Notes: a model not told the origin generated them from the sequence alone. DNA of 58,907 bases from Candidatus Liptonbacteria bacterium (GCA_016186635.1 JACPLI010000003.1:1-58907), one strand, 5' to 3'; counted from the stretch's first letter, positions 21,491 to 43,296 are shown. Program-made: numbers and translations.

Positions 21491-21534
21491 GATTATAGTG
21501 TGAGGATACGTTATACGTTATTAGTTATCAAGGT

Positions 21535-22095: not shown

Positions 22096-22802
22096 TGCCG
22101 GTGAAGCGTGAATCTCGCTCGGTGCTTGTCACAGGCGCCTCGTCCGGACTCGGCGCTTTTTTGGCTCGTGCATTTGCGCATGCAGGATATGCGGTGGTGC
22201 TCCATGGGAGGGATGAAGCGCGCCTGCGCGCGCTCCACGGCGAGATTCTGAAGAAGGAAAAAGCGGATTGCCCGATGGTGGCGGGGGACTTGGGCACTCC
22301 GGCGGGAGTACGCGCCGTGCAAGCGGCGCTCGGCGCGCACGGCGTGGGCGTGCTCGTGAACAACGCGGCGGTGAATCCTGAACTCGCGAGCGGCGTTTCC
22401 GCAACCGAAATAGAGGACGTGCGCGCGGTGCTCGATGTGAACACCGCGGCGCCGATTGCGCTTTCCTATGCCGCCCGCGCACACTTCAAAGCTGCGGGAG
22501 GAGGCACCATCGTCAATGTGAACACGGTGGCAGGACTTCGGGGCAGTTCACGAGAGGTAATGTACGCCGTTTCAAAGTTTGGCTTGCGCGGTTTCTCCGA
22601 ATCGGTAAAGGAGGATTGGCTTAAGGAGGGGATAAAAATTATTGACGTATTCTCTGGCGCGCTCGGGACCGGAATGTCGGCACATCGGGCGGACAGAGAA
22701 CAGCTCATCGCTCCGCAGGAGCTTGCGGAATTCCTCGTGGGGCTTTGCGCAACGAAGAGCTTTTTTGTGAAAGAGTTGAATGTGCGAAGAACCGCCGTAT
22801 AA
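22095..22802 (+). CDS. SDR family oxidoreductase
   Basis: TGASSGLG, NNAA, YAVSK; the true start may be GTG 22101. Confidence 0.85.
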   Translation: MPVKRESRSVLVTGASSGLGAFLARAFAHAGYAVVLHGRDEARLRALHGEILKKEKADCPMVAGDLGTPAGVRAVQAALGAHGVGVLVNNAAVNPELASGVSATEIEDVRAVLDVNTAAPIALSYAARAHFKAAGGGTIVNVNTVAGLRGSSREVMYAVSKFGLRGFSESVKEDWLKEGIKIIDVFSGALGTGMSAHRADREQLIAPQELAEFLVGLCATKSFFVKELNVRRTAV

Positions 22803-22813
22803 TACCACAATTA

Positions 22814-23872: not shown

Positions 23873-23887
23873 GCGGCCGCGCATCCC

Positions 23888-24667
23888 ATGAATCATCTCA
23901 AAGAAAAAATATTGAGGGCAGCCACTGCGGCGCAGGAGGGCCATATTCCGGCCGCGTACTCCATTTTGGACATCGTATGGGTCCTCTACGACCGGATACT
24001 CGGGGTGACGCCGGAAAATGCGAATGACCCGGACCGGAACCGCTTTATCTTGAGCAAAGGGCATGCGGCAGTGGGCCTCTACGTGGTGCTCGCCGAAAAG
24101 GGCTTCATCAGCTCTGACCTGCTCAAGGACTTCGGCAAGTTTGAGAGTCCCTTGGGCGGGCACCCCGACCGGCTCAAGGTGCCGGGCGTCGAGGCTTCGA
24201 CGGGGTCGTTAGGCCATGGGTTCCCGATGGCGGTGGGGCTCGCCTTGGGGGCAAAAATCAAGAAGAAGCCGAGCAGGGTGTATGTAATTGTCGGCGACGG
24301 CGAGGCGAATGAAGGTACGATATGGGAATCGGCAATGCTTGCGGCGCATCATAAGCTCGACAATCTCTATTGCATTCTGGACCATAATCATTCCGGTGAC
24401 GGCGCGATGGGGCCGGGGAATATGAGAAAGAAATTCGAGTCGTTCGGCTGGCACGCGAGCTCGATTGACGGGCATGACCAGAAGGCAATTCACGCGGCGC
24501 TCACGCAAAGGGTTTTAGGGAAACCCGTCGCCGTGATTGCGGAGACGGTGAAGGGCAAGGGAATCAAGATTATGGAAAACAGCCCCGAGTGGACGCATAA
24601 ATATCCCGCGCCGGAGCAGTTGGAAACGATGGCGCAAGAACTGCGCGCGATAAAAGACCATGCGTAA
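23888..24667 (+). CDS. Transketolase-like N-terminal (TPP-binding) subunit
   Basis: FILSKGHA, GHP, STGSLGHG, GDGEANEG, TVKGKG. Confidence 0.9.
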   Translation: MNHLKEKILRAATAAQEGHIPAAYSILDIVWVLYDRILGVTPENANDPDRNRFILSKGHAAVGLYVVLAEKGFISSDLLKDFGKFESPLGGHPDRLKVPGVEASTGSLGHGFPMAVGLALGAKIKKKPSRVYVIVGDGEANEGTIWESAMLAAHHKLDNLYCILDHNHSGDGAMGPGNMRKKFESFGWHASSIDGHDQKAIHAALTQRVLGKPVAVIAETVKGKGIKIMENSPEWTHKYPAPEQLETMAQELRAIKDHA

Positions 24668-25547
24668 ACAGCTTGCGGCGACAATCGAGGAGCTCATACA
24701 AAAGGACAGCACGTTAGTGCTGCTCTACGGCGACGTGGGCACCTACGGCTTCCGCCGTTCCCAGGCGCAGTTTCCCGAGCGCGTGCATAACGTGGGAATC
24801 CTCGAGCAGTCCATGGTGAGCATGGCGGCGGGACTCTCCATGCAGGGGTTCACCCCTGTGGTGCACACAATTGCGACATTTTTAGTCGAGCGGGCGCTCG
24901 AGCAGATTAAGGATGACTTCGGTTATCAGCGCCTCGGCGGGAATTTTGTGAGCATCGGGGCTTCATATGACCTCGCGTCGTGGGGATGCACGCATGAGTG
25001 CCCCGGAGACGTGGGAATTTTGAAAAATGTTCCGGAAGTGGAAATAGTCGTGCCGGGGAGCGCAGCCGAATTCGACAGTTTGTTTAAGCAGTCATACCGG
25101 AACGGGCACCCGACGTATTTTCGCTTGAGCAACAAGAGCAACCCCGCGAGCCATGAGGTTGAATTCGGAAAAGCAAACGTAATAAGAGTAGGAAAGCGCG
25201 CCACGGTCCTCGCCGCGGGTCCCATGCTCGGGCGGGTGGAAGAAGCGTGTAAGGATTTGGATGTGACAATTTTGTATTACACTACGCTTGCGCCGTTCGA
25301 TAATGAGACCCTGCGGCGCAATCTCGCGGGAGAGAACCTTATCGTGTGCGAGCCCTACTACAGCGGCGCATGCGCCGCGGATATCGCGGTTGCGCTTGGT
25401 TCGCGTCCCGCCGCGGTCAGCTACATTGGCGTCCCGCGGGAGTTCCCGCATCACTACGGCACAATGGATGACATCGACAAGCTGTTCGGCCTTACCGCTT
25501 CCGCTATGAGTGCTACAATCAAAAAGATACTTAGTAACAATGGTTGA
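24660..25547 (+). CDS. Transketolase-like C-terminal subunit
   Basis: NVGILEQSM, RALEQI, GCTH, PTYFRL. Confidence 0.9.
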   Translation: MRKQLAATIEELIQKDSTLVLLYGDVGTYGFRRSQAQFPERVHNVGILEQSMVSMAAGLSMQGFTPVVHTIATFLVERALEQIKDDFGYQRLGGNFVSIGASYDLASWGCTHECPGDVGILKNVPEVEIVVPGSAAEFDSLFKQSYRNGHPTYFRLSNKSNPASHEVEFGKANVIRVGKRATVLAAGPMLGRVEEACKDLDVTILYYTTLAPFDNETLRRNLAGENLIVCEPYYSGACAADIAVALGSRPAAVSYIGVPREFPHHYGTMDDIDKLFGLTASAMSATIKKILSNNG

Positions 25548-26853
25548 TTTTAGGGGGGCAATACAAAAATTTAAGAATGCGAAGGTGGTGGTCATCGGGG
25601 ACATCATGCTTGACCGGTACACTTATGGCGACGTTGAACGCGTGTCGCCGGAGGCGTCCGTCCCCGTGGTGCTCAAGGTGTCGGAAAAATTCACGCTCGG
25701 CGGCGCGGGAAATGTCGCGGACAACTTGGTGGCGCTCGGCGCGGATGTCGAGCTTGCGGGAGTGGTAGGGAAAGATGAGGCGGGGGAGCTTGTTATGAAA
25801 CTGCTTAAGGAGAAAGGCATCGGCGCCGCGGCGGTGGTGATGCTCCCGCACCGCCCCACAATTGAGAAACACCGCATTGTGGCGAGCGGAAACCACCAGC
25901 TTCTGCGGCTTGACCGGGAAAGCAAGGACCCCATGAGTCCCGAGGAAGAAGACCGTGGGTATCGTCTGCTCGAGCCGGCCGTGCGGCGGTGCGATGCCGT
26001 TATTTTTTCGGATTACGGAAAAGGGTTTTTCTCCGAGCGGTTTGCGAGGAAAATCGTCGCGCGTGCGAAGTCCGAACGGAAGCTGATGCTCGCGGATTTC
26101 AACACCGCGAAGCACAAGAAATATTTTATCGGAGTGGACGTGGTCACGCCCAACCTGAAGGAGGCGAGGGAATTCACCGGACTCCATGCGGTTGAGGAAA
26201 TCGGCCCCCAGCTTGTGAGCGACTTTGGCGCGCACGTGGTCCTCACCCGCGGCGGCGAGGGGATGTCGCTCTTCCGCCGCGAGGATGCGTCGCACCATCA
26301 CACACCGGGCAAAAAGGTGAGCGTGTTCGACGTCTCCGGCGCGGGGGACACTTCCATTTCGGTATTGGCGCTTGGAATGGCGGCGGGCGGGCTCGACATT
26401 GCTGATGCCGTGGCGCTTGCGAATGAGGCGAGCGCGCTTGTGGTGCAGAAGCCGGGAACCGCCGCCATTTCCCCCGAAGAATTGGCGTCGGTCGTGCGCG
26501 GAGATAATCACCTGGAGAACGTCGCGAGAGTTCCCAAGGTATGGGGATATGAGCAGTGGCTCGAGAATAACGAGAAATACTGCTGCAAAGTCCTCGCGCT
26601 GAACAAGGGGTACCAATGCAGTCTGCATTATCACAAAAAAAAGGACGAAACATTTTTGGTGACCGCCGGGCATGTGCGCCTGGAGCTTGGGGATGAGGTG
26701 CTCCACCTGCGGCCCGGGACGTTCGTGCGGGTGCCGCCGAACACCCGCCACCGCTTCGCCGGCATTGAGGACTCGGCAATTATCGAAGTGAGCACGCATC
26801 ATGATGAGGCAGACAGCTTCCGCATCGAAGAAAGCCGGAAGATGGACGCGTGA
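25540..26853 (+). CDS. Heptose-7-phosphate kinase (RfaE domain I/HldA, PfkB fold) fused to a C-terminal cupin
   Basis: GDIMLDRY, RVSPEA, GGAGNV, SDYGKG, TPNLKE, DVSGAGDT; then VPKVWGYE, SLHYHKKKDETF. Confidence 0.88.
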   Translation: MVDFRGAIQKFKNAKVVVIGDIMLDRYTYGDVERVSPEASVPVVLKVSEKFTLGGAGNVADNLVALGADVELAGVVGKDEAGELVMKLLKEKGIGAAAVVMLPHRPTIEKHRIVASGNHQLLRLDRESKDPMSPEEEDRGYRLLEPAVRRCDAVIFSDYGKGFFSERFARKIVARAKSERKLMLADFNTAKHKKYFIGVDVVTPNLKEAREFTGLHAVEEIGPQLVSDFGAHVVLTRGGEGMSLFRREDASHHHTPGKKVSVFDVSGAGDTSISVLALGMAAGGLDIADAVALANEASALVVQKPGTAAISPEELASVVRGDNHLENVARVPKVWGYEQWLENNEKYCCKVLALNKGYQCSLHYHKKKDETFLVTAGHVRLELGDEVLHLRPGTFVRVPPNTRHRFAGIEDSAIIEVSTHHDEADSFRIEESRKMDA

Positions 26854-28136
26854 TGCCGGTTCCTGCGATGGACATTTCTAAATTTTACGCGAAGCTCGCG
26901 GTCATCACGACTCGCGCGCTGCTGTTGCGGTTTATGCCGGTGCGCCCCAACCGGGAGGGGTGGGAGGGGCGCATGCTCCTCATCAATTTAGATTTCATCG
27001 GGGACTTGGTGATGTTTACTGCGGTCTTGAAGCATTACCGAAGGGCGTGCCCCGGCAAAACAATTTTTGTGCTTATAAACAGCGCGAGCGGCATGAGCCC
27101 GCTCCTTTTGGAGGGCTTCGCAGACGAGGTACTCACGCTTGACGCTGAGGCGTTCCGAACAAACGCGTGGTACGGATACCGATTCATCGCAAAGCTCCGC
27201 CGCATCGGCTTTGCGACTGTGGCTGAGCACAACCCCGCCATGGAGTTTATCGGGAGAACGATTGCGGTGGAGCTTGGCGCGGAAAGGGTTTTCGGGTATG
27301 AAGGGCTTGCTTTTGACCGAGATGTACCGCCGAGCAGGAATGCCGAATTAGGGACACGGTATTTCGACCGCGTACTTTCTAAGAAATTTACGAAGGTCAT
27401 TCCGAGGATTACCGAGCGTATCTCTCCGCGGTATCTCACGCATATGATTGCGCACCATGCCGCAATCTTTGAAGGCGTAACGGGGAGAGAAGCGCCGGAG
27501 AATCTTGCGCCGGAGCTCCCCCGTCTTCCGAGCGACGAGACTATTCAGGGCATGCTACGCAAGGAGGGGGTGAAACCCTATTCCTATGCGCTTATTGCGT
27601 TGGGTGCGAGTTCCTTTCGCAAAGAATGGCCGCCGGGAAAGTTTGCCGAGCTGGGGAAAGTGCTTGTCGGGAAAGCAATCCCCATCGTGCTTACGGGTGG
27701 TAAACGAGATGTGCCCGGAGCCCGCGCCTTTGCGGAGTTTCTCGGCAGTCCTTGCATTGACCTTGTGGGGAAGACTTCCATTCTTGATGTGGTAAGTTTG
27801 GTCCGGTACTCGCTCATTACGGTGAGCAACGACACCGCCCCCACGCACTTTGCGGTGGCTTTGAAGCGCCCGTCGCTCACCATCATGTATCCCACGCGGC
27901 CCGGGTGGGCGGGTCCCTACGGATACCGCGACATCAACCGGTGGGTAATACGGGAAGACGTGCCGTGTTTCGGCGACAACGGGCAGTGCGGCAATGCGGC
28001 GGGCCCGGGCGTGCTGGCGCCCTGCATAGCGGCCGTGACCGTCGAGGACGCGAAGAAAGAACTGGTACCGCTTCTCGCGCACATCACCTCGGGCGTTCCG
28101 TACCCCGCGACTCCTTTTTTGTTGTTTGCAAAGTAG
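26850..28136 (+). CDS. Glycosyltransferase family 9 (heptosyltransferase-like)
   Basis: FIGDLVM, RKEWP, DLVGKTS, SNDTAPTHFAVAL. Confidence 0.85.
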   Translation: MMPVPAMDISKFYAKLAVITTRALLLRFMPVRPNREGWEGRMLLINLDFIGDLVMFTAVLKHYRRACPGKTIFVLINSASGMSPLLLEGFADEVLTLDAEAFRTNAWYGYRFIAKLRRIGFATVAEHNPAMEFIGRTIAVELGAERVFGYEGLAFDRDVPPSRNAELGTRYFDRVLSKKFTKVIPRITERISPRYLTHMIAHHAAIFEGVTGREAPENLAPELPRLPSDETIQGMLRKEGVKPYSYALIALGASSFRKEWPPGKFAELGKVLVGKAIPIVLTGGKRDVPGARAFAEFLGSPCIDLVGKTSILDVVSLVRYSLITVSNDTAPTHFAVALKRPSLTIMYPTRPGWAGPYGYRDINRWVIREDVPCFGDNGQCGNAAGPGVLAPCIAAVTVEDAKKELVPLLAHITSGVPYPATPFLLFAK

Positions 28137-32109: not shown

Positions 32110-32940
32110 ATGGTCAGAACTTCCAAAGTCGCCCTTATTACCGGTGGCTCCGGCGGCATCGGCCGGACGGTTGCACGCGAACTCGCGCATAAAGGGTATA
32201 GAGTGGCGCTGGTAGACCGGAGCAAGCGCGAGCTTGCGTCCGTGCTCCGACTGATCCGGAAGGGAGGGGGCGACGCGCGCGCCGTCGCCGCCGACGTTTC
32301 GCGCCCTAAGGATGTCCGGCGCGCGGTCGCGGGAATACTCCAGTCACTCGGCCGCATTGACGTGCTCGTGAACTGCGCGGGCATTCAGGCGCCCATCGGT
32401 TCCTTCGCCGCGACCAAGCTTTCGGACTGGGAGTACAATCTCCGCGTGAATCTTTTTGGGACCGTGCATGCGGCGCACGCGGTGCTTCCCTCGATGGTGC
32501 GCCGGAAGGAAGGCGTGATTGTGAATTTCTCCGGAGGCGGTGCTACAGGGCCGCGCCCCAACTTTTCTGCATACGCGGTGGCTAAAATCGGAGTGGTGAA
32601 ATTCACGGAAATCCTTGCCGAGGAGCTCAAGGGCACGGGCGTGCGGGTGAACGCGGTGGCGCCCGGAGCGGTGAATACCGGCATGCTCAAGGAAGTGCTC
32701 CGCGCGGGTTCTCGGGCGGGCGCGAAGGAGCTTGCGGATGCGGAAAAGCGCGCGAAAGAAGGCGGCACGCCGCCCGAGCGGGTTGCGGGACTTATCGCGT
32801 TTCTTGCTTCTCCCAAAGCGCGGCTGCTCACGGGAAAACTCATCAGCGCGGTCTGGGACCCGTGGGAGAAGTGGACCCGGAAGGACATCGTGCGCATCGC
32901 CTCGACGGACATCTACACGCTCCGGCGAAGAACCGAATAG
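32110..32940 (+). CDS. SDR oxidoreductase (paralog of 38218-39048)
   Basis: TGGSGGIG, NCAG, FSAYAVAK, APGAVNT. Confidence 0.87.
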   Translation: MVRTSKVALITGGSGGIGRTVARELAHKGYRVALVDRSKRELASVLRLIRKGGGDARAVAADVSRPKDVRRAVAGILQSLGRIDVLVNCAGIQAPIGSFAATKLSDWEYNLRVNLFGTVHAAHAVLPSMVRRKEGVIVNFSGGGATGPRPNFSAYAVAKIGVVKFTEILAEELKGTGVRVNAVAPGAVNTGMLKEVLRAGSRAGAKELADAEKRAKEGGTPPERVAGLIAFLASPKARLLTGKLISAVWDPWEKWTRKDIVRIASTDIYTLRRRTE

Positions 32941-32941
32941 T

Positions 32942-33892
32942 ATGGAAAAGAAAAAGATTCTTGTAACGGGAGTCGCGGGTTTCATGGGCAGCAACCTCGC
33001 GGACCGCCTCCTTGCTGCAGGCCATCGTGTGGTTGGAATAGACAATTTGGAATACGGCCGCAAAGAACAGGTTGCGGAAGGAGTGGAGTTCCATAAAGCG
33101 GATATTCGCTCGAAAGAGATATACCCGCTCTTTGAAGGGGTGGATGCGGTGTTCCATCTCGCCGCGAAAAATTGCCTTCCGGATTGTCAGGCAGACCCGG
33201 TTGCTACCATGGACATCAATGTGACGGGCACCGCGAACGTGTTTGAGGCCGCGCGCCGCGCGAAAGTGCCCCGTACGCTCTATGCGGAGTCTTCTGCCGT
33301 GGAGGAAGGGGATGACCGGTTGAAAGGTTTTTACGCCATCTCCAAATTGGCAGACGGCAAAATCGCGGAGGGGTACCGCGCCGAGTTCGGGCTCGATATC
33401 GTAGGGCTCCGGTATTTCAATCTCTATGGCCCGCGCCAGGATTATCGAAGAAAATCTCCTCCCGTGATGAGCAAACTCATCATCACTTTTCTGAAAGGGG
33501 AGCAGTCCCTCGACCGTGAGCTCGGGGCCGAACGGCCGGTAGTCTTTGAGGGGGATGAAGACAATAAAAGGGATTTTATTTATGTGGACGACGTGAATGA
33601 TTTTCATATGCTCTGCCTCACGGACGGGAGAGTGAAGAATAAACTCTTCCGGCTGGGGAGCGGGAGGTCTACTTCCGTAAAGGAGGTGTATGACACCATT
33701 GTGAAACTTATGGGTGTGCAGCCGAACCCGATAGCGAAACCGCGCCCGCCGGGAGACCCCGTGGTGGCGACACTCGCGGACTGGAGCGAAGCCGGGAAAC
33801 TCGGCTGGAAACCGAAGACCTCGCTCGAAGACGGGCTCCGCGCGCAAATTGAGTGGATGCGGGAGGAGTTCAAAAAAGGAAACATTCGGTAA
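32942..33892 (+). CDS. NAD-dependent NDP-sugar epimerase/dehydratase
   Basis: GVAGFMG, HLAA, YAISK, RYFNLYGPRQ, RDFIYV. Confidence 0.85.
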   Translation: MEKKKILVTGVAGFMGSNLADRLLAAGHRVVGIDNLEYGRKEQVAEGVEFHKADIRSKEIYPLFEGVDAVFHLAAKNCLPDCQADPVATMDINVTGTANVFEAARRAKVPRTLYAESSAVEEGDDRLKGFYAISKLADGKIAEGYRAEFGLDIVGLRYFNLYGPRQDYRRKSPPVMSKLIITFLKGEQSLDRELGAERPVVFEGDEDNKRDFIYVDDVNDFHMLCLTDGRVKNKLFRLGSGRSTSVKEVYDTIVKLMGVQPNPIAKPRPPGDPVVATLADWSEAGKLGWKPKTSLEDGLRAQIEWMREEFKKGNIR

Positions 33893-33956
33893 TTGGAAAT
33901 TGAGTAATTGGTAATTGGGAATTGTTTAGAAATTAGTAATTAGAAATTAGATATTG
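33890..33956. repeat. Heptamer-periodic AT-rich tract (solo right arm of family B)
   Basis: AATTGG/AATTAG units; shares TTGTTTAG..AATTAGAAATTAG with the B1 right arm. Confidence 0.65.
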
Positions 33957-33969
33957 TATATTCCTATCT

Positions 33970-34956
33970 ATGATTATTACCCGTACGCCGTTTCGAGTAA
34001 CGCTCGGAGGAGGAGGCACCGACTTGCCTTCCTACTACGAAAAGCACGGCGGCTTCATTTTCTCCGCCGGCCTCGACAAGTATATGTTCGCGAGCGTGAG
34101 CCGCCCCATGGAAGATGATTTGATTCGGCTGAAGTACAGCGAAGCGGAGTACGTTGCGAGCGTGAGCGAAGTGAAGCATACGATTTTCCGCGAGATTCTC
34201 CGCTTTATGGGCATCGAGAAACAGATTGAGATTTCCACCGTTGCCGACGTGTCAGCTGGCACGGGGCTCGGCTCGTCGAGTTGTTTTACCGTTGCCGTGC
34301 TTCATGCACTCCACACTTTGAAGCGCGACTATGTCTCGCTCCAGACGATTGCCGAGGAAGATTTCACGATAGAGAACGGTATCCTCAAGCGTCCGATTGG
34401 CAAGCAGGATCCCTACATGGCCGCGTTCGGGGGGCTCACGGTTTTGGAGATTGCGAAGGATGGCACGGTCAAGGTCCGTAAGGCGAATGTGGCGCAGGAA
34501 ACGGCTGACGCGCTGAATCGCAACATGCTTATGTTCTTCACCGGCGTCAGGAGGAGTGCGGATACCATTCTCGCCGAGCAAACGAAGGGGATGAAGGAAG
34601 AGAAGAAAGACGTCATGGAAAGCATGCGTTACATTGAGGAAATCGGACGCCAAATCCTCGAGGCGGTGGAGGGCGACGACGTGGATGCGGTGGGGCGGCT
34701 TTTCGACGCGCACTGGCAGCACAAGAAGCGCACGTCGGCGAAAATGTCGAACCCGGAATTCGATACAATTTATGAAACCGCGAAGGCGGCGGGCGCCTTG
34801 GGCGGCAAGATTTCCGGCGCGGGCGGCGGGGGATTCTTTACGTTCTATGTTCCCGAGAAGCACAAAGAATTCCGCGAAGCGATGAAGCAGTTCGGCGTGC
34901 GGGAGATGCATTATCGGTTTGATTACGAAGGTTCAAAAGTGCTTGTGGACTTGTGA
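33970..34956 (+). CDS. GHMP sugar-phosphate kinase (HddA/LmbP-like)
   Basis: RTPFRVTLGGGGTDLPSYY, GLGSS, GKQD, GGKISGAGGGG. Confidence 0.9.
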   Translation: MIITRTPFRVTLGGGGTDLPSYYEKHGGFIFSAGLDKYMFASVSRPMEDDLIRLKYSEAEYVASVSEVKHTIFREILRFMGIEKQIEISTVADVSAGTGLGSSSCFTVAVLHALHTLKRDYVSLQTIAEEDFTIENGILKRPIGKQDPYMAAFGGLTVLEIAKDGTVKVRKANVAQETADALNRNMLMFFTGVRRSADTILAEQTKGMKEEKKDVMESMRYIEEIGRQILEAVEGDDVDAVGRLFDAHWQHKKRTSAKMSNPEFDTIYETAKAAGALGGKISGAGGGGFFTFYVPEKHKEFREAMKQFGVREMHYRFDYEGSKVLVDL

Positions 34957-34989
34957 AATATCGATATATCGACATATCAAAATTTTAAA

Positions 34990-35745
34990 ATGCCAGAGTC
35001 TCCCAAAAAAGCGCACGAGTTGCGCATTAAAATTTTTGCGGACGGCGCGGAGAAAGCAAGCATGGTGGAGCTTGCGAGCAAACCTCATATCAAAGGGCTC
35101 ACCACCAATCCTACGCTCATGCGCAAGGCGGGCGTGCTCGACTACGCCGCGTTTGCGAAAGACGTCCTCGCCGCGATTAAAGACAAACCCATTTCCTTCG
35201 AGGTGTTTTCCGATGACTTCAAGGAGATGGAGCGGCAGGCGGGTATTATTGCGGGATGGGCAACGAATGTGTATGTAAAAATCCCCATCACGAATACGAA
35301 GGGAGCGTCTTCGGTGCCGCTCGTGAAGCGCCTTGTGGCGCGGGGCGTGAAAGTGAATGTGACGGCGCTCCTCACGGGGAGCCAGGTGGAAGAAGTCGCG
35401 AAGGTGTTGTCTCCGAAGATTCCTTCCATCGTCTCGGTTTTCGCGGGGCGCATCGCGGACACAGGAAGGGACCCGCTTCCCTATATGGAAGAGGCGAAGC
35501 GAATTCTCGCGCCGAATCCCGCCGCGGAGCTCTTGTGGGCAAGCACGCGCGAGCTCTTGAATATTGTGCAGGCGGAAAAACTCGGGTGTCACATTATCAC
35601 CGCCACCCCCGACATTTTGAAGAAACTGGAGAAATTGCACTATGACTTGAGCCGGCTTTCGCTTGAAACGGTGCAGATGTTTTATGACGACGGGCAAAAA
35701 GTGGGGTATAAACTGTATGAAATTGAGTCGCCAAAGCAAGGTTAA
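34990..35745 (+). CDS. Transaldolase, small family (LmbR-like candidate)
   Basis: TTNPTL, VYVKIP (Schiff-base Lys), VNVT, VSVFAGRIAD, LWASTRE. Confidence 0.9.
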   Translation: MPESPKKAHELRIKIFADGAEKASMVELASKPHIKGLTTNPTLMRKAGVLDYAAFAKDVLAAIKDKPISFEVFSDDFKEMERQAGIIAGWATNVYVKIPITNTKGASSVPLVKRLVARGVKVNVTALLTGSQVEEVAKVLSPKIPSIVSVFAGRIADTGRDPLPYMEEAKRILAPNPAAELLWASTRELLNIVQAEKLGCHIITATPDILKKLEKLHYDLSRLSLETVQMFYDDGQKVGYKLYEIESPKQG

Positions 35746-35773
35746 ACCTTGATATGTGAAAAGGTTTAACCTT
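35738..35773. repeat. Paired REP-like palindromes AAGGTTAAACCTT / AAGGTTTAACCTT
   Basis: Two 13-bp palindromes that are reverse complements of each other; the first supplies the transaldolase stop codon. Confidence 0.7.
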
Positions 35774-35781
35774 TGAACTGC

Positions 35782-37080
35782 ATGACTAAGATTGGCGTTA
35801 TCGGCCTCTGGCATCTCGGCGAAGTGTACTCCGCCGGGTTTGCGGAACTTGGCCACACGGTGGTGGGGATAAGCGAGGATGCGGGCGTAATCGAGAACTT
35901 TGACAGAAATGTCCCGCCGCTCGCGGAACCGCGCCTTGCGGAGCTTATTGCAAAGCACCGCGCCGCAGGCCGGCTTGCCTACACGACACGCTGGGACTCT
36001 CTTAGCGGATGCGACGTGGTCTGGCTTGCGTTTGATACGCCGGTTGATGAAAGGGACGATGCAGATGTGTCGGTGATTATGGGCGCGGTGAAAAAAGCGA
36101 TTCCCCGCCTCCAGCACGGCGTATTGCTTGGAGCGTCGAGCCAGCTTCCCGTCGGGACGTCAAAAAGAATTTGTGACATGATACGGACCACGAGGCCGGA
36201 GCTGAAATTCGAGTACGTCTATGTGCCGGAGAACCTCCGTCTGGGAGACGCGGTGCGGGGCTTCCTCGAGCCGGAGCGGCTCGTCATCGGAGCGGATACT
36301 CCGGAAGCGCTCGCCCGCGCGCGCGCATTGTTCGCGCCTTTGAACGCGAACATTGTTTCCGTGTCGGTGCCTTCAGCGGAACTCGGGAAGCACGCCATGA
36401 ACGCGTTTCTTGCCGCTTGTATCAGCTTTGCGAATGACATCGCGGACGTCTCGGAGAAAGTAGGCGGCGACGTCGAGGATGTGATGCGGGTCTTGAAGTC
36501 CGACCCGCGCGTGGGCCCCAAAGCGTATCTCTTCGCGGGACTGGGATTCTCCGGCGGCACGCTTGCGCGCGACCTCACGGCGCTCATCCGCACGGGAGAA
36601 CGGGAGCACATTTCCCTTCCGGTAATTCAAGGAGTGCTTGAGAAGAACCGCACGAGAAACCTGCTCGTGAAAACCCGGCTTGAGGAGCAATGGGGGAGTG
36701 TGCAGGGCAAGGTGCTCGCCCTTTTTGGTTTGACCTACAAGGGCGGGACCCCCACGCTCCGGCGTTCGCAGGCGCTCGAGGTGGAGAAGATGCTCCGCGA
36801 GGCGGGCGCCACGCTCCGGCTTTACGACTCGCTTGCGAGCGAGGAGGAGGTGAGGGCGGCAACCCCCTCGCCGTTTTGGAGGGACCCGTACGTTGCCGCA
36901 GAAGGCGCGGACGCGGCGCTCGTGATGACCCCCTCGAGAGAGTTCAAGATGCTTGATTTTGCAAAACTGAAGTCTGTCATGCGCATACCCGTTCTTTTTG
37001 ACACGCAGAATGTCTTATGCGACAAAGAGAAAGATATCAAAGCTGCGGGAATCACCTATTTGAGTATTGGGAGGCAATGA
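35782..37080 (+). CDS. UDP-glucose/GDP-mannose dehydrogenase family protein lacking the catalytic Cys (LmbL-like candidate)
   Basis: GLWHLG, DTP, PENLRLG, SAELGKHAMN, DPRVG; GLGFSGGTLARD instead of GGSCFPKD. Confidence 0.85.
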   Translation: MTKIGVIGLWHLGEVYSAGFAELGHTVVGISEDAGVIENFDRNVPPLAEPRLAELIAKHRAAGRLAYTTRWDSLSGCDVVWLAFDTPVDERDDADVSVIMGAVKKAIPRLQHGVLLGASSQLPVGTSKRICDMIRTTRPELKFEYVYVPENLRLGDAVRGFLEPERLVIGADTPEALARARALFAPLNANIVSVSVPSAELGKHAMNAFLAACISFANDIADVSEKVGGDVEDVMRVLKSDPRVGPKAYLFAGLGFSGGTLARDLTALIRTGEREHISLPVIQGVLEKNRTRNLLVKTRLEEQWGSVQGKVLALFGLTYKGGTPTLRRSQALEVEKMLREAGATLRLYDSLASEEEVRAATPSPFWRDPYVAAEGADAALVMTPSREFKMLDFAKLKSVMRIPVLFDTQNVLCDKEKDIKAAGITYLSIGRQ

Positions 37081-37086
37081 ATTCTG

Positions 37087-37121
37087 GGAAGTCGGACTTC
37101 CTGAAGGAAGTCCGACTTCCT
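37087..37121. repeat. Paired REP-like palindromes GGAAGTC(G/C)GACTTCC, copy 1
   Basis: GGAAGTCGGACTTCC-TGA-AGGAAGTCCGACTTCCT; second pair at 57825-57858. Confidence 0.75.
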
Positions 37122-37151
37122 AACGTTGATGCCAACAATTACAATTCATCA

Positions 37152-38147
37152 ATGATTAAGCTGGCTTTAGTAGGCGCAGGCGGCATCGGAAAAATCTGGG
37201 CGGATGCGCTTAAAAAAACCGACAAGTTTGCGCTCGCGGCGGTGGTGGATGTGGATGCCGCGAAAGCCAAGGCAATCGCGGACGCATTTCCGGGCGCGGC
37301 GGTGTATGGGGAAATTAAGGAAGCTCTTGCGAAAGGGGACTTCGAGGCGGTGGTGATTGCGACGCCGCATGCGTTCTTGGCGTCCGTCTCGTATGCCGCG
37401 CTCGTGGCGGGGAAGCACGTGCTCTGCGAGAAGCCGGCGGGCATCTCCTCGGCGGAGGTTGCGGAGAATATCGCCGTTGCGGAAAAAGCAAAGCGTGTGT
37501 ATATGATTGGGTTCAATCACCGCTACCACCCCGCGTATATGCAGGCGAAGGAAATTGCGGACAAGGGCGAAATCGGGAAAATTATCTGCGTGCGGGCGCG
37601 CTACGGCTTCGGCGGGCGCCCCGGGTACGAGAAAGAGTGGCGGTTCAACAAAAAAATAAGCGGCGGCGGGGAACTCATTGACCAGGGGATGCACATGATT
37701 GACATGGCGCGGTGGTTTATGGGCGACTTTGCGGATGTCTTAGGGTTTGCGGAAAACCTCTACTGGGGTGGCGAGGTGGAAGATAACGGTTTTCTCCTCT
37801 TGCGCACCGCCGACAAGCGCGTGGCGCAGATTCATGTGAGCTGGACGAATTGGGAGTGGGTGCATTCATTCGAGATTTTCGGCACGAAGGGGTATCTCTC
37901 GGTAGATGGGCTTGACAAGCGCTACCGAGGTCCCGAGAAGCTCACCGTGGGGAAGGTAGACCCGCAGTCGGGAAAGTTTCCGGTGGAAACGGTGACCCCA
38001 TTCCCCGAGGAGAAGAAAGAAGATTCCTTTGCGCGGGAGCTTGAGGAGTTTGCTGCGGTCATCGGAGGTACGATGGAGTTGAAGTCCAAAGGAGAGGATG
38101 TGGTTGAAGTGCTCAAAATCGTCGAGCGGGTTTATGATAAGAAGTAG
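37152..38147 (+). CDS. Gfo/Idh/MocA oxidoreductase (LmbZ-like candidate)
   Basis: GAGGIG, ATP, KHVLCEKP, GFNHRY, GGGELIDQGMH. Confidence 0.9.
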   Translation: MIKLALVGAGGIGKIWADALKKTDKFALAAVVDVDAAKAKAIADAFPGAAVYGEIKEALAKGDFEAVVIATPHAFLASVSYAALVAGKHVLCEKPAGISSAEVAENIAVAEKAKRVYMIGFNHRYHPAYMQAKEIADKGEIGKIICVRARYGFGGRPGYEKEWRFNKKISGGGELIDQGMHMIDMARWFMGDFADVLGFAENLYWGGEVEDNGFLLLRTADKRVAQIHVSWTNWEWVHSFEIFGTKGYLSVDGLDKRYRGPEKLTVGKVDPQSGKFPVETVTPFPEEKKEDSFARELEEFAAVIGGTMELKSKGEDVVEVLKIVERVYDKK

Positions 38148-38149
38148 TG

Positions 38150-38207
38150 TGTCATTCCCGCAGAAGCGGGAATCCAGTCCTGGATCCCCGCGTGCGTGAG
38201 GATGACA
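38150..38207. repeat. GTCATTCCCG..CGGGAATCC-type palindromic repeat (dRS3/RPE-like)
   Basis: TGTCATTCCCGCAGAAGCGGGAATCCAG...CTGGATCCCCGCG..GAGGATGACA contains ATTCCC-N8-GGGAAT. Confidence 0.7.
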
Positions 38208-38217
38208 AAATACCCCA

Positions 38218-39048
38218 ATGGAAAAAATCCTCAAGAACAAAGTCGCGCTCATCACCGGCGGCAGCCGCGGCATCGGCAAGGCAATCGCCGAGGCCTACTT
38301 GAGAGAGGGGGCGAAAGTAATGCTCGTCGCACGAAGCCGCGAGGAGCTGAAAGCCGCGAAGGGAGAACTCAAGAAATTTGGCGAAGTGGAATCCTGCCCG
38401 GCGGATGTCTCGCGGGCGGGAGACGTGAAGGCGGCGGTTGAAGCCACGTTCCGTGTATTCGGGAGAATTGATGTTTTGGTGAACGGCGCGGGGGCTTACG
38501 GCCCTATTGGTCCTTCGGAGGAAGTGGACTTCGAGAAGTGGAAGAATACCTTTGAGATAAATGTGTTTGGGACATTTCGCATGATGCAGGAAGTGATTCC
38601 GCACATGCAGCGGCAGAAGTCCGGAAAAATTATCAACTTCTCTGGCGGGGGAGACACGGCGCTCCCGCGGTTCAGCGCGTATCACGCCTCGAAAGGCGCG
38701 ATTGTGCGGCTCACCGAGACAATCGCCGCGGAAGTGAAAGAATATGGCATCGAGGTGAACTGCTTTGCTCCCGGCGCGGTGAACACGAAGTTCCTCGACG
38801 AAGCGCTCGCGGCGGGCGAGGAAAAAGTGGGAAAGGAGCGGTACGAAAAACTTTTGAAACAAAAAGCCGAAGGCGGCGTGTCTCCCGAAAAAGCGGCGGC
38901 GCTTTGCGTCTTCCTCGCTTCATCCGCCTCGGATGGGCTCACGGGCAAATTCTTGAGCGCGGTCTGGGACGAGTATCCAAAATGGGGTCCCAAAGAAATC
39001 GCCGAAATTATGAAGACGGATCAGTATACCATGCGCCGGAAAGTTTAG
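38218..39048 (+). CDS. SDR oxidoreductase (paralog of 32110-32940)
   Basis: TGGSRGIG, NGAG, FSAYHASK, APGAVNT. Confidence 0.88.
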   Translation: MEKILKNKVALITGGSRGIGKAIAEAYLREGAKVMLVARSREELKAAKGELKKFGEVESCPADVSRAGDVKAAVEATFRVFGRIDVLVNGAGAYGPIGPSEEVDFEKWKNTFEINVFGTFRMMQEVIPHMQRQKSGKIINFSGGGDTALPRFSAYHASKGAIVRLTETIAAEVKEYGIEVNCFAPGAVNTKFLDEALAAGEEKVGKERYEKLLKQKAEGGVSPEKAAALCVFLASSASDGLTGKFLSAVWDEYPKWGPKEIAEIMKTDQYTMRRKV

Positions 39049-39077
39049 TTGACGAAAAGTATCCTTTCTTGTATTCT
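39049..39077 (+). promoter_or_regulatory. Internal sigma70 promoter
   Basis: TTGACG-N17-TATTCT. Confidence 0.55.
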
Positions 39078-39126
39078 CCTGAAGTTGTAGTTTATGTCAT
39101 AGTCATCGTTATCGTCATTGTTTTCA

Positions 39127-39735
39127 ATGTATAAACCCTACATCGAATCCTACTTCGCCGAGGCGAAGCAAATTATTGATGGGATTGACCACGCCGCAAT
39201 CGCGCGGATGATTGAGGTTTTGAAAGGCGTCCGCGAGAAGAAGGGGCGGCTTTTTATTTTGGGCGTGGGCGGCGGCGCGGGGCACGCGAGCCATGCGGTA
39301 AATGACTTCCGGAAAATCGCAGGTATTGAGTCCTACACTCCCGTGGACAACGTGGCGGAGTTCTCCGCCCGCGTGAACGATGACGGCTGGGATTCGGTAT
39401 TCGCGAAGTGGCTTGAGGGGAGCCAGCTTGGTTCGCGGGACGCGGTGCTCGTCTTCTCCGTGGGAGGCGGAAACGCGGAAAAGAAAGTGAGCGTGAATAT
39501 CGTGGAAGCGCTGAAGCACGCGAAGAACGTAGGCGCGAAAGTGTTGGGTGTCGTAGGGCGCGACGGGGGATATACAAAGACGGTAGCGGATGCGTGTGTC
39601 GTGGTGCCAGTCGTAAATCCGGACACTGTGACCCCGCACACGGAAAGCTTCCAGGCGGTGGTCTGGCACCTCATCGTGAGCCATCCGCATTTCAAGAAGC
39701 ACGAAGGGAAGTGGGAGACGGTGCAAAAAGCGTAA
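39127..39735 (+). CDS. SIS-domain phosphosugar isomerase (GmhA/LmbN-like)
   Basis: LGVGGGAGHASH, ARVNDDG, FSVGGG, GRDGG, TPHTE. Confidence 0.85.
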   Translation: MYKPYIESYFAEAKQIIDGIDHAAIARMIEVLKGVREKKGRLFILGVGGGAGHASHAVNDFRKIAGIESYTPVDNVAEFSARVNDDGWDSVFAKWLEGSQLGSRDAVLVFSVGGGNAEKKVSVNIVEALKHAKNVGAKVLGVVGRDGGYTKTVADACVVVPVVNPDTVTPHTESFQAVVWHLIVSHPHFKKHEGKWETVQKA

Positions 39736-39815
39736 TGTTGAGCGGTTAAGGTCAGGAAGCCCGTCAACTTTCACCCCTAAACAAAACCGGCGTCGTAACC
39801 CTTACCTATCCGCCA

Positions 39816-40367
39816 ATGAAGAAAACAGTCTTTCTCGACCGCGACGGAACGCTTATCGAGTACGTTCTCGAGCTCACGAAGCCAGAGCAACTCAAAATCC
39901 TTCCCGGCGCGGTAGAAGGAGTAAAAATGCTGAACGAAGCGGGGTTTTTGTGTATTATCCTCACGAACCAGCCCATTATCGAAAAGGGGAAAATCACCCA
40001 GGCGGAGGCGGAGGAAATTAACCGGGTACTTGCAGAACAATTCGCCGCGCAAGGGGCAATAATTGATGGGGCCTACATTTGTCCGCATCGTTTCAAAAAT
40101 CCCCAGCATTGCACCTGTCGCAAGCCCGATCAGGGGATGGTGCAGGAAGCCGTAAAGAAATTCGACATTGATCTCTCCCAAAGTTTCATGGTGGGAGACT
40201 CCTTGCGCGACATCGAAACCGGCAAACGCGGAGGTATGAAAACTATTCTTATCGGGGGAGGGCAGGGTGGTACCGAAGATGCAAAATTTTTTCCGAATAC
40301 CGTGCCCGACTACACCGTGCCCGATATGAAAGCCGCGGCGGAACAGATTCTTCGCCTTACCGAATAA
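39816..40367 (+). CDS. Second GmhB-like bisphosphate phosphatase (LmbK-like candidate)
   Basis: FLDRDGT, TNQP, CPH..CTCRKP, MVGD..RD. Confidence 0.87.
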   Translation: MKKTVFLDRDGTLIEYVLELTKPEQLKILPGAVEGVKMLNEAGFLCIILTNQPIIEKGKITQAEAEEINRVLAEQFAAQGAIIDGAYICPHRFKNPQHCTCRKPDQGMVQEAVKKFDIDLSQSFMVGDSLRDIETGKRGGMKTILIGGGQGGTEDAKFFPNTVPDYTVPDMKAAAEQILRLTE

Positions 40368-40370
40368 ATG

Positions 40371-40414
40371 TTTGCACCATTCTTTATCCCACGTGGGATA
40401 AAGAATGGTGCAAA
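40371..40414. repeat. Perfect 44-bp palindrome with no spacer, between convergent genes
   Basis: TTTGCACCATTCTTTATCCCAC|GTGGGATAAAGAATGGTGCAAA. Confidence 0.9.
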
Positions 40415-40526
40415 GAAATAAGCGATAGAAATGACTACGGGGACTTGTCTGCCTTCGCTAGTGAGCGAATGGCGAACAGTCCCCGTAATTTTTTTAAGCC
40501 CTTTCTTCTTAAATTTGAATTGTTGG

Positions 40527-41435
40527 TTATATCACCGTTTCTCGGAGGCGTTCCGCAGTCGCCTGATGCGACCAGAGGATGTTCCATTCGCGTCCCTCGG
40601 GGTTGCCGTCGTAGATGCTTGTCCATTCAAGCGTTCCGAGGTTGTTGAGAATAGGAATGAGCATCCCGAACATAACAGCATGGTGGCGGATGTAGAACTC
40701 CAGCATGTAGTCAGGCGCCATGCCCTGCGTACTACGGAATGCTGTAGCGAATGTCTGGATGAGGCGGTGCAGGTAGGCAGGGAAGTAAGGGTTCCCCAAA
40801 CTCACGACACTGTTCGCTCGAGGGAAAATAAAGACCTGTCCGGTACGGACCCCTCCAGCGACGGTTATGAGTTCTTCATCCCACACGACAGACGGCGAAG
40901 GAGAAGAAGGTCCTGCTACTTCCTGTATCCCCGCTCTCCATCCACGCAGTTCGTCCGAGTTTCTCATCGTCCGTTTCCGATAGATATGGAGGTGGTCGTG
41001 CCGTATGTTTCCTGCCGCGAGATCCCCGCGTTGGGTTGAGATCTGCACATCCGGTTCCTTGTCCTCGATGATGGTCTTTCTCACGATATGGACCGCGGCG
41101 TCGATTCCTTCTCTTCCGCCCATCGAACGTGTTTGTTCCTCATCCCAACACTGGTCAGTTAAAATCAGTTTGTGATAAGGCTCGGGTGCGAAGAGAGATT
41201 TCGCGAGGCGCCATGATTGGTAGCCAGTTTCTTCCACGTTGAATCTTCTCAAAATTTCCTCATCAGGGAGCTTGGCGAAGCGGCAGGTGCTTGCGTTGTG
41301 GATGTCGAGCGCCGGTTGCCATCGACGATTAAACTTCCCGGCTTCGGGCATCTTTTTCTTTGCTCCAGCTACGGATTTGAATCCGCCCGGCCACGATTGG
41401 ATGATGTTTCCTTCGGGTGTTATTTCTACGTTCAT
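40527..41435 (-). CDS. Hypothetical protein with a HIT/GalT-like HxHxH motif
   Basis: PEPYHKLIL, GDLAAGNIRHDHLHIY; SD AAAGGA; upstream TTGACA-N16-TAAAAT on the minus strand. Confidence 0.6.
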   Translation of the reverse strand: MNVEITPEGNIIQSWPGGFKSVAGAKKKMPEAGKFNRRWQPALDIHNASTCRFAKLPDEEILRRFNVEETGYQSWRLAKSLFAPEPYHKLILTDQCWDEEQTRSMGGREGIDAAVHIVRKTIIEDKEPDVQISTQRGDLAAGNIRHDHLHIYRKRTMRNSDELRGWRAGIQEVAGPSSPSPSVVWDEELITVAGGVRTGQVFIFPRANSVVSLGNPYFPAYLHRLIQTFATAFRSTQGMAPDYMLEFYIRHHAVMFGMLIPILNNLGTLEWTSIYDGNPEGREWNILWSHQATAERLRETVI

Positions 41436-41567
41436 AGTTCCTTTCGAATCTGGTTGATGTTTTTGGTTTGGTTTTCGCCCAACAATTCCAGTATTAAGTT
41501 GTCATTATTGAGCTGGCGATATTTTATAACATTTTTCCCTTTTGTCAAAAGGTGCTACACTTTCTGA

Positions 41568-42311
41568 ATGCAAAACAAAATTACGCAGGCAGTGATTGCG
41601 GCAGGGGGGCAGGGAACGCGGCTTCGCCCCACGACGGAGACGATTCCCAAAGTGATGATTCCCATATTAGGGAAGCCCATGTTGGAGTGGCACGTGGAGC
41701 AGTTCAAGAAGCACGGCGTCAAGGAATTTTTCTTCACGCTCCAGTACTTGCCGGAGGTGATTACCAATCACTTCGGCGACGGCTCGAAATGGGGAGTGAA
41801 AATAAATTACTTTGTGGAAAAGGAGCCGTTGGGCTCTGCAGGAGGCATCAAAGCATTCGAGAAGCAATTGGGCGATGAATTCTTCTTTATCTACGGCGAC
41901 ACGTTCAGTTTGGTGGACTACACGAAGATGACGGAGAACTGGGCGAAGAAGCCCGCGGACGCCTTGGGCATGCAGCGGATGAAAAAGACGCAGGACTATG
42001 CGGATGCGGACGTGGCGGAGCTTGACGCGGACGGGAAATTCGTGGCAATCCACACGAAGCCGCACACCGCAACGTATCCCAACGCCCACCGCATGCGGGG
42101 GGTTTTCATCATGCGGAAAGAAATTCTCCAGTATGTGCCGGAGAACACCGCATACGACCTTGGGAAGAAACTTATGTCCGATATTGTGAAGCGCAACCTG
42201 AAGTTCTATAGCTACGAGTGCGATGATTATTCAAAGGGGATTGATACGATAGAGAAATGGAAGGAGGTGGAAGAGAATGTGCGGAAACTTCAGTCCGAAG
42301 GGAAGGCCTAG
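41568..42311 (+). CDS. NDP-sugar pyrophosphorylase (HddC/LmbO-like)
   Basis: AAGGQGTRLRP..IPKVM, EKEPLGSAG, YGD. Confidence 0.87.
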   Translation: MQNKITQAVIAAGGQGTRLRPTTETIPKVMIPILGKPMLEWHVEQFKKHGVKEFFFTLQYLPEVITNHFGDGSKWGVKINYFVEKEPLGSAGGIKAFEKQLGDEFFFIYGDTFSLVDYTKMTENWAKKPADALGMQRMKKTQDYADADVAELDADGKFVAIHTKPHTATYPNAHRMRGVFIMRKEILQYVPENTAYDLGKKLMSDIVKRNLKFYSYECDDYSKGIDTIEKWKEVEENVRKLQSEGKA

Positions 42312-42423: not shown

Positions 42424-43296
42424 TTAGTCGGCGCCGACGTTTTTCTGGAGAATGTCAAAGAGTTTTGGAACGAGTTCTGGGTGTCCGGCGACGAATCCCA
42501 GAACTTGCTGGTCGGTGTCGTAATCGTACCGCCCAAGTTTTTGGACGGGTTCAATCTTTCCATCCACGACATGGAAACATTGAAATGCCCCGTCTGCTTC
42601 AAGCACCATTGGCATGCCGCCGCACCAGTCCCATGGCATTTGCGGGGATTGAACAATGGCGTCAATGCGCCCGGCGGCGACAAGCGCAAGCCCGAGTGCT
42701 CCCGATTCCGCGATGCCGCGCGGCTTCAGGTTTTTTGGAAGCGCGGTCACGAATTTCCCGTAGGTGTCGGTGCGTGACACGTCGATCCCGAGGTACACAA
42801 GAGGTTTCGGGTCCCGCGCGCCGATGGAAACTTGGGCCGGTTCCGCTGCGCCATGTTCCCAGAGGAATACGCCTATGCCCCTTTCCCCCGCGATGGTAAG
42901 CCCGCCACGCACCTCCGGCGCGTGGATGACGCCGCCGACGTGCTTCCCGTTGCGCCCCACGCCGATTGCGGAACACCACTGGAACAGTTTCCGGCGATTT
43001 GGCGTTGTCCCGTCAATCGGGTCCAGCGAAAAGGCGCGTTCGCCGGTGAAATCTCCCGGGAAAGGATTGCCTTCTTCCTCCGCAAGGAAGGTCGCGTCGG
43101 GGAATTGATCGTGAAGCTTGGCGATTGCGATTAGTTGCCCTCCGGTGTCCGCCTCGGTGAACGAGGCGGTTTCGAATGTTGGATGCGGCTTGGTTTTTAT
43201 CTCTGTTGCCCACTTGCCACTCGCAATCAGGTTTCCGACCTTAATCGCGGTGTTCATTGCGGCCGCCATTTCTTCCGAGAAGTTTATAACAGTCAT
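42424..43296 (-). CDS. Inositol monophosphatase family protein
   Basis: TEAD, AEE, LDPIDGT, VAAGRID, PWD. Confidence 0.88.
   Translation of the reverse strand: MTVINFSEEMAAAMNTAIKVGNLIASGKWATEIKTKPHPTFETASFTEADTGGQLIAIAKLHDQFPDATFLAEEEGNPFPGDFTGERAFSLDPIDGTTPNRRKLFQWCSAIGVGRNGKHVGGVIHAPEVRGGLTIAGERGIGVFLWEHGAAEPAQVSIGARDPKPLVYLGIDVSRTDTYGKFVTALPKNLKPRGIAESGALGLALVAAGRIDAIVQSPQMPWDWCGGMPMVLEADGAFQCFHVVDGKIEPVQKLGRYDYDTDQQVLGFVAGHPELVPKLFDILQKNVGAD

Follow-up and report, generated by a model that had tools for sequence, protein, structure and literature searches.

The described systems closest to the locus analysed here are the lincosamide sugar branch of Streptomyces lincolnensis and S. caelestis (lincomycin and celesticetin) and the pathways for nucleotide-activated heptoses. 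In the lincosamide route, as set out in the consulted sections of two reports, LmbR is the transaldolase, LmbN the isomerase, LmbP the kinase, LmbK the phosphatase and LmbO the nucleotidyltransferase, LmbM is an epimerase, LmbL a dehydrogenase, LmbZ an oxidoreductase and LmbS an aminotransferase, and GDP-octose is carried on to GDP-D-alpha-D-lincosamide by LmbM, LmbL, CcbZ and CcbS (PMC4351081, PMC12945683). The parts consulted of a third report describe how LmbR uses fructose-6-phosphate or sedoheptulose-7-phosphate (S7P) together with ribose-5-phosphate (R5P) to form D-glycero-D-altro-octulose (octulose-8-phosphate) (PMC5854111). The GDP-D-glycero-alpha-D-manno-heptose pathway consists of GmhA, HddA, GmhB and HddC, and the ADP-heptose pathway has the bifunctional HldE. 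Here we analyse a stretch of 58,907 nucleotides from a Candidatus Liptonbacteria bacterium (GCA_016186635.1 JACPLI010000003.1:1-58907; hereafter the window), whose positions 32110-42311 carry a sugar-nucleotide gene cassette that includes a small transaldolase (TAL). On balance we think it probable that this block specifies a nucleoside diphosphate (NDP)-octose pathway, tailored by a trio of redox enzymes and feeding the surface glycan encoded around it.

Ten gene families had been named in a first-pass annotation of the window, and Pfam and NCBIfam models recovered all of them on the + strand. The cassette opens with a classical short-chain dehydrogenase (SDR1, 32110-32940, 276 aa; adh_short 188.9 bits) and a protein of the extended-SDR NDP-sugar epimerase/dehydratase family (32942-33892, 316 aa; Epimerase 164.5 bits; start set at MEKKKILVTG from the translation), which scores under all NCBIfam equivalog cut-offs and has orthologues of 51-56% identity in four loci (L005, L012, L013, L025). 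These are followed by a GHMP anomeric sugar kinase (33970-34956, 328 aa; GHMP_kinases_N and _C) and by the transaldolase (34990-35745, 251 aa; TAL_FSA 139 bits), which passes TIGR02134 with 325 bits against a cut-off of 282. The motifs VYVKIP, FEV and ADG are conserved in the transaldolase alignment, and their Lys, Glu and Asp are presumably the residues expected of a transaldolase. Next come an NDP-sugar dehydrogenase resembling UDP-glucose dehydrogenase (UGDH) but without its catalytic Cys (35773-37080, 435 aa; three UDPG_MGDP_dh domains), a Gfo/Idh/MocA oxidoreductase (Gfo; 37152-38147, 331 aa; N- and C-terminal GFO_IDH_MocA domains; alternative earlier in-frame starts possible at 37017 and 37077) and a second classical short-chain dehydrogenase (SDR2, 38218-39048, 276 aa; adh_short 187.7 bits), a paralogue of SDR1 with 46% identity. 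A divergent SIS ketose-phosphate isomerase resembling GmhA (39118-39735, 205 aa; SIS_2 33.9 bits), a HAD-IIIA sugar-bisphosphate phosphatase resembling GmhB (39816-40367, 183 aa; Hydrolase_like and HAD models) and a sugar-1-phosphate nucleotidyltransferase (41568-42311, 247 aa; NTP_transferase 97 bits) complete the set. The earlier description of one co-oriented block holds for the orientation of the ten genes and fails for continuity, as a hairpin and an opposite-strand gene split the phosphatase from the nucleotidyltransferase.

As in the lincosamide branch, so far as the consulted sections of its description go, all eight enzyme families are found together in the window, and in both cases a transaldolase would feed a heptose-like activation route. 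The setting differs in that the window cassette lies among the flippase, polymerase and glycosyltransferase genes of a surface-glycan locus and not in an antibiotic cluster. Lincosamide tailoring reportedly comprises 6-epimerisation, 6,8-dehydration, 4-epimerisation and 6-transamination, as Wang et al. are said to have found in 2020. The window module, however, has no aminotransferase and instead a conserved SDR beside the pair of UGDH-like and Gfo genes, nor does its isomerase or its oxidoreductase carry a carrier-protein fusion.

The transaldolase alone distinguishes the octose route from the heptose route, and whether it belongs to the pathway is the crux of the matter. The enzyme is encoded by the sole TAL_FSA gene of the genome. 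A transketolase (N-terminal part), Rpe and RpiB cluster without a transaldolase on another contig (C22, 5792-7895), so that S7P and R5P should be obtainable without the cassette enzyme. In the class as sampled (301 genomes), a TAL_FSA match is present in only 37 and absent from 264. Orthologues of the UGDH-like protein (at least 38% identity) are present in 13 class genomes, in 11 of which a transaldolase lies on the same contig; of the other two, one has the gene on a 6.6-kb contig and one at a contig end. The first-pass annotation had proposed a survey of cassette synteny across genomes of the candidate phyla radiation (CPR). There, a SIS protein at least 35% identical to that of the window was found in 20 class genomes, and in 19 of them a transaldolase gene is 1-4 kb away. 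Twenty further transaldolase loci from the class divide evenly: in 10 the gene is next to HAD, SIS and/or GHMP kinase genes, and the other 10 hold mostly long-type or divergent transaldolases without such neighbours.

The same association recurs far outside the class. A scan limited to a single genome for each species, made with aligned transaldolases that had been picked only for their high-GC composition, returned 80 loci, from Acidobacteriota (32), Pseudomonadota (18), Actinomycetota (13) and, in smaller numbers, Myxococcota, Chloroflexota, Planctomycetota, Bipolaricaulota, Thermodesulfobacteriota, Elusimicrobiota, Cyanobacteriota, Vulcanimicrobiota and Verrucomicrobiota. Across these phyla, at least 12, a SIS or a HAD gene lies no more than 8 kb from the transaldolase at 73 loci and both do at 60; within the same distance there are GHMP kinase genes at 45, NTP-transferase genes at 29 and Gfo genes at 34. 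Five of the seven loci without SIS or HAD are on short contigs or at contig ends. Natural fusions, as judged by Pfam domains, join HAD to TAL in four proteins, TAL to SIS in one and SIS to HAD in two (P0124, P0126, P0134, P0150 and P0125; L065, 8668-10017; L085, 8808-9998). Large genomes with a cassette transaldolase hold a second, better-scoring canonical one elsewhere in all five cases. In a transaldolase tree the window protein falls in a clade of 91 rows, 72 of them linked to cassettes, and two or three separate lineages of the enzyme are found in such cassettes. Synteny and fusions thus point to a transaldolase that works within the sugar-activation pathway.

We also compared the cassette with heptose cassettes proper. 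The best named NCBIfam families for the isomerase, kinase, phosphatase and nucleotidyltransferase are the heptose ones, and all four proteins score below the cut-offs: 52 bits against 209 for gmhA, 154 against 600 for HddA, 129 against 178 for GmhB and 90 against 300 for HddC. Cassettes of GHMP, SIS, HAD and NTP-transferase genes with no transaldolase nearby, in class genomes with no TAL_FSA match at all, make up at least 8 of 16 fetched loci and serve as controls. The window SIS belongs to a clade of 34 rows (SH-aLRT support 99) in which every row but that of genome G039 is TAL-linked; rows from TAL-less cassettes lie outside it, and a smaller, second TAL-linked clade is found among the GmhA-like rows. 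With the gmhA model, isomerases of TAL-less cassettes reach 88-219 bits (one above the cut-off) versus 49-54 for the window type. In the kinase tree, 11 kinases of TAL-less cassettes form one clade (SH-aLRT 98) with the window kinase outside; the TAL-less label requires two changes on this tree, and none of 500 shuffles did as well. One genome, G082, carries cassettes of both kinds. The trees, the scores and G082 together point to a distinct pathway and not to a heptose cassette with a stray gene. The GDP-heptose pathway shares with the window cassette its four families and the kind of locus, but differs in that the latter has an obligatorily linked transaldolase and an isomerase and a kinase outside the TAL-less clades. 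The claim that the transaldolase sets the cassette apart from plain GDP-heptose cassettes, made in the first-pass annotation, has gained from the synteny, the fusions and these controls.

The UGDH-like protein had also been noted as lacking the catalytic Cys, and the alignment bears this out. Against the solved UGDH 4a7p (242 bits), the stretch SGGTLARD aligns with GGSCFPKD, so that Thr replaces the Cys; the aligned Lys, Asn and Asp, which we take to be active-site residues, are kept. With rare departures, the orthologues sampled, which range from CPR to Acidobacteriota, share a GGTL.RD core with Thr (typically GF[SA]GGTL[AGM]RD); a few carry variants such as GFAGWSIARD or GFSGATLGRD. All 14 lower-identity relatives sampled from the class retain GYGGSCFPKD, and these have no Gfo, SDR or TAL neighbours. 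The protein thus shares all three domains with UDP-glucose 6-dehydrogenases but has Thr for the nucleophilic Cys in nearly all orthologues, and with this change the enzyme would not be expected to oxidise its substrate by four electrons to a uronic acid. Around the UGDH-like gene, 11 of 13 CPR loci contain an SDR orthologue and 11 a Gfo orthologue; the adjacent gene is an SDR2 orthologue of 43-56% identity in 11 of the 13, and also in Lawsonia and in Rhizobium jaguaris. A different Cys-less UGDH-like protein (GGNLERD, with Asn for Cys) occurs with a more distant Gfo protein at 9 of the 80 loci. With the GGTL type, this makes two independent pairs of Cys-less UGDH-like and Gfo proteins that accompany TAL, SIS and HAD, alongside two activation chemistries. 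The suggestion that the SDRs, or a DegT enzyme, act on the keto intermediate survives in its first half, which fits the conserved trio of UGDH-like, SDR and Gfo proteins. As to its second half, the DegT gene (12235-13398) is 19 kb upstream of the cassette and outside the conserved module. It is the only DegT gene, and homologues are present in just 12 of the fetched loci.

The pathway that we propose takes up what is directly observed, namely which genes are present, the loss of the Cys, and the tight linkage, seen again and again in genomes, of TAL to SIS, HAD and kinase genes and of the UGDH-like gene to SDR and Gfo genes. What we infer is every substrate and product, how long the carbon chain is, which nucleotide is attached and in what order the tailoring enzymes act. 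In a first module, the transaldolase would condense the C3 unit of fructose-6-phosphate or S7P with R5P to octulose-8-phosphate, the divergent SIS isomerase would convert this to the aldose, the GHMP kinase would phosphorylate C1, the GmhB-like HAD phosphatase would take off the terminal phosphate, and the nucleotidyltransferase would yield an NDP-octose (a GDP-octose by analogy only). In a second module, the epimerase, the Cys-less UGDH-like protein, which would be limited to a two-electron oxidation, the Gfo/Idh/MocA oxidoreductase and one or both SDR ketoreductases would tailor the side chain; oxidation, dehydration and reduction would probably result in a deoxy-octose. The earlier interpretation of the locus as a lincomycin-type octose cassette is in part supported by our analysis. 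It is plausible and considerably strengthened, and it is not proven.

Several observations weigh against the octose reading. Synteny cannot separate a C8 from a C7 product, and a pathway-specific transaldolase could just raise the supply of S7P. The term lincomycin-type denotes a likeness by enzyme family (Pfam, NCBIfam) and not a sequence relation to Lmb or Ccb proteins; no Lmb chain turned up when the PDB was searched by sequence with the UGDH-like, TAL, SIS and Gfo proteins, and Streptomyces was absent from the 80 loci of the cross-phylum scan. Among representative transaldolase matches, the clusters of the ten that looked most GC-rich bore no informative names, and the best 120 matches to an actinomycete SIS protein were without exception near-identical sequences from soil. 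Transaldolases of the same clade also occur in catabolic surroundings: two Lactobacillaceae plasmids (L133, L134) carry them beside phosphotransferase system (PTS) genes, Treponema next to genes for carbohydrate uptake, and a Streptomyces plasmid next to the gene for a lactone oxidase. G039 carries the SIS gene, no transaldolase was found there, and its contig ends at that point. In the window itself the phosphatase and the nucleotidyltransferase are set apart by the hairpin and the opposite-strand gene together, and the closest relatives of the nucleotidyltransferase (46-58% identity) include those of TAL-less cassettes, to which it is nearest (46-53%). Cys-less UGDH-like enzymes are not exclusive to TAL cassettes either, as seen in genome G110, where the SIS protein of the locus in question (L124) passes the gmhA equivalog cut-off; such enzymes may also act on heptoses. 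To our knowledge, no linear octose has been reported from any bacterial surface glycan, and we found none in the open-access literature searched. The same searches yielded no description of a TAL-linked, heptose-like cassette in glycan loci.

Some details of these loci deserve mention in their own right. On the two Lactobacillaceae plasmids the transaldolase genes lie directly upstream of PTS genes of the mannose/fructose/sorbose type under a LacI regulator, and their place beside PTS genes hints that this enzyme family also serves catabolism. The transaldolase on the Streptomyces plasmid was considered as a lead to an antibiotic cluster and rejected; its neighbours are the lactone oxidase, HxpB and transposases, with no cassette. 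In the G110 locus (contig C14, 66-5897), the Cys-less UGDH-like gene (GFSGTVARD) is 3 kb from a TAL-less cassette of GHMP, HAD, NTP-transferase and SIS genes.

How far do other explanations account for the same data? The one that deserves most attention, although we regard it as unlikely, is a modified NDP-heptose (C7), for which the transaldolase would only boost S7P, the SIS, kinase, phosphatase and transferase proteins being divergent forms of GmhA, HddA, GmhB and HddC. Such a product would agree with the best matches of the four core enzymes to heptose models, though sub-cut-off, with the name 'D-sedoheptulose 7-phosphate isomerase' that JGI gives to the SIS family, with the affinity of the nucleotidyltransferase to those of TAL-less cassettes, and with the GT9 gene of the locus (26850-28136), a member of the 'heptosyltransferase' family of glycosyltransferases; paralogues for precursor supply, moreover, sometimes sit in gene clusters. 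It is harder to reconcile with the TAL-less cassettes of class members that have no transaldolase whatever, with a host that has transketolase, Rpe and RpiB for S7P, with large genomes that keep the cassette transaldolase beside the canonical one in five of five cases, with the fusions to HAD or SIS, and with TAL-linked isomerases and kinases that fall outside the TAL-less clades, both cassette types occurring in G082.

A further alternative, which we hold to be distinctly improbable, keeps the higher sugar and changes the acceptor, chain length or configuration (for instance an octulose derived from arabinose-5-phosphate, or a nonulose from a hexose-6-phosphate), so that the product would not be the D-erythro-D-gluco-octose of lincomycin type. 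Transaldolases accept several aldose phosphates, at least two to three separate lineages have been recruited to SIS-HAD-kinase cassettes in CPR, and the existence of two activation routes, one by GHMP kinase and NTP-transferase and one HldE-like, means that products may differ. Set against this, LmbR and LmbN with R5P are, in the sections of the literature consulted, the only characterised precedent for a transaldolase working with a GmhA-like isomerase. That the transaldolase is instead a housekeeping enzyme of the pentose-phosphate pathway, placed in a glycan locus by chance, we find hardly credible. It would suit the sole TAL_FSA gene of a genome, and one that passes the 'transaldolase' equivalog cut-off of TIGR02134. 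Yet with 264 of 301 class genomes lacking a match, the enzyme is no standard housekeeping gene here, the pentose-phosphate genes are clustered elsewhere without it, and transaldolases of this type adjoin SIS or HAD genes where they occur. The NDP-octose pathway remains the reading that we prefer.

The cassette is widespread in other phyla and not special to CPR. It is found whole in two cultured species, Lawsonia intracellularis and Rhizobium jaguaris. On plasmid 3 of Lawsonia (L132, 8724-17075), the annotations 'nucleotide sugar dehydrogenase', 'SDR family oxidoreductase' and 'Gfo/Idh/MocA family oxidoreductase' follow one another in the same order as the trio of the window, flanked by 'SIS domain-containing protein', 'HAD-IIIA family hydrolase', 'transaldolase', 'galactokinase' and 'nucleotidyltransferase family protein'. 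All cassette genes are generically annotated there, and the transaldolase is followed by an inserted 'lysylphosphatidylglycerol synthase transmembrane domain' gene. The same arrangement was detected by tblastn on the chromid pRCCGE525c of R. jaguaris CCGE525 (L136, 2838-10708). A variant is exemplified by a Parvibaculaceae chromosome (L063, 8829-20018), where the order is SIS, HAD, TAL, epimerase, epimerase, a fused CTP_transf_like+PfkB gene, Gfo and UGDH-like. The UGDH-like protein of this locus has Asn for Cys (GGNLERD), further epimerase/dehydratases, NUDIX and methyltransferase genes are present, and eight loci are similar. As in the ADP-heptose pathway with its bifunctional HldE, such loci use CTP_transf_like+PfkB in place of GHMP kinase and NTP-transferase, with a domain order that is the reverse of that in HldE; unlike that pathway, they are tied to a transaldolase and to the pair of GGNLERD-type UGDH-like and Gfo proteins. 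The window itself likewise carries a PfkB gene, fused to a cupin (25510-26853).

The window is the whole of contig C30 in a genome of 921,088 bases on 31 contigs, 97.85% complete. Candidatus Liptonbacteria, Kaiserbacteria and Paceibacterota are the names attached to the closest homologues of its proteins, which makes the assignment to a CPR host, first put forward as probable, a reasonable one. From about 5 to 52 kb the contig is a glycan locus with Wzy_C, GDP-mannose 4,6-dehydratase, DegT, NUDIX, methyltransferases of C- and FkbM-type, GT1, GT2, GT9 and GT10 glycosyltransferases, a Wzx-type flippase and a Bac_transf initiating transferase. The surface-glycan setting given by the first-pass annotation is confirmed by the Wzy_C, flippase, Bac_transf and glycosyltransferase genes around the cassette. 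The GT9 gene is the obvious candidate for transferring a higher sugar. We looked by tblastn for a co-conserved glycosyltransferase with the GT9, GT2 and GT4-like proteins of the window; GT9 was found in none of the fetched cassette loci and the others sporadically.

Between the cassette phosphatase and nucleotidyltransferase, a hairpin with a perfect 20-bp stem (40371-40414) stands directly after the HAD gene; it is terminator-like and lies between convergent genes. The opposite-strand gene (40527-41435, -, 302 aa) gave no Pfam hit, and in the ESM Atlas it appears GalT/HIT-like, resembling GalP_UDP_transf/DUF4921 clusters (feature similarity 0.92-0.94, structure TM 0.72), which makes it a putative sugar-1-phosphate nucleotidyltransferase or NDP-sugar phosphorylase. 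Its stretch is of lower GC (0.51), an 11-of-12 sigma-70-like promoter site lies upstream, and a homologue is present in only 1 of the fetched loci; the gene falls outside the conserved module. It may be a later insertion, or else an alternative activating or phosphorolytic enzyme. Directly after the cassette there is an inositol-monophosphatase-family gene (42424-43296, -), with homologues of 32-34% identity in the CPR cassette loci L004 and L005. A second set of sugar-phosphate genes (21008-26853) comprises a 176-aa open reading frame, a second GmhB-like HAD gene, an SDR, a zinc-dependent alcohol dehydrogenase, a transketolase split in two (23888-24667 and 24660-25547) and the PfkB-cupin gene. 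Homologues of its PfkB and transketolase genes recur in HldE-type TAL-SIS-HAD loci of other phyla, and the set might serve as a second route of activation or branching, with intermediates in common with the cassette.

A broader reading of these data, which we put forward tentatively and hold at a little short of even chances, is that bacteria of at least 12 phyla share an unrecognised route to nucleotide-activated C8 sugars for surface glycans, among them CPR, Acidobacteriota, Actinomycetota, Pseudomonadota, Chloroflexota, Cyanobacteriota, Lawsonia intracellularis and Rhizobium jaguaris. Its invariant core would be a dedicated small transaldolase with a GmhA-like isomerase and a GmhB-like phosphatase, sometimes fused; activation would proceed via GHMP kinase and nucleotidyltransferase or via an HldE-like enzyme, and a unit of Cys-less UGDH-like and Gfo proteins would deoxygenate the extra carbons of the side chain. 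On the same tentative footing, the lincosamide sugar pathway would be a specialised offshoot, and linear (deoxy)octoses would be overlooked components of the envelope.

If true, the pathway would assign a role to a very large family whose members now bear the automatic labels 'sedoheptulose-7-phosphate isomerase', 'transaldolase', 'galactokinase' and 'UDP-glucose dehydrogenase', and would account for the conserved trio of Cys-less UGDH-like, SDR and Gfo proteins. Should the sugar prove to be a heptose, a route of GmhA/GmhB type to which a transaldolase is obligatorily coupled would still be a pathway variant not described before. What we rank as the more important result is how widely this uncharacterised cassette is spread and that cultured bacteria carry it, so that the question is open to direct test. 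If the product is an octose, a class of sugar known in bacteria almost only from lincosamides would become a common building block of the cell envelope, including that of the reduced CPR bacteria, whose surfaces mediate attachment to their hosts.

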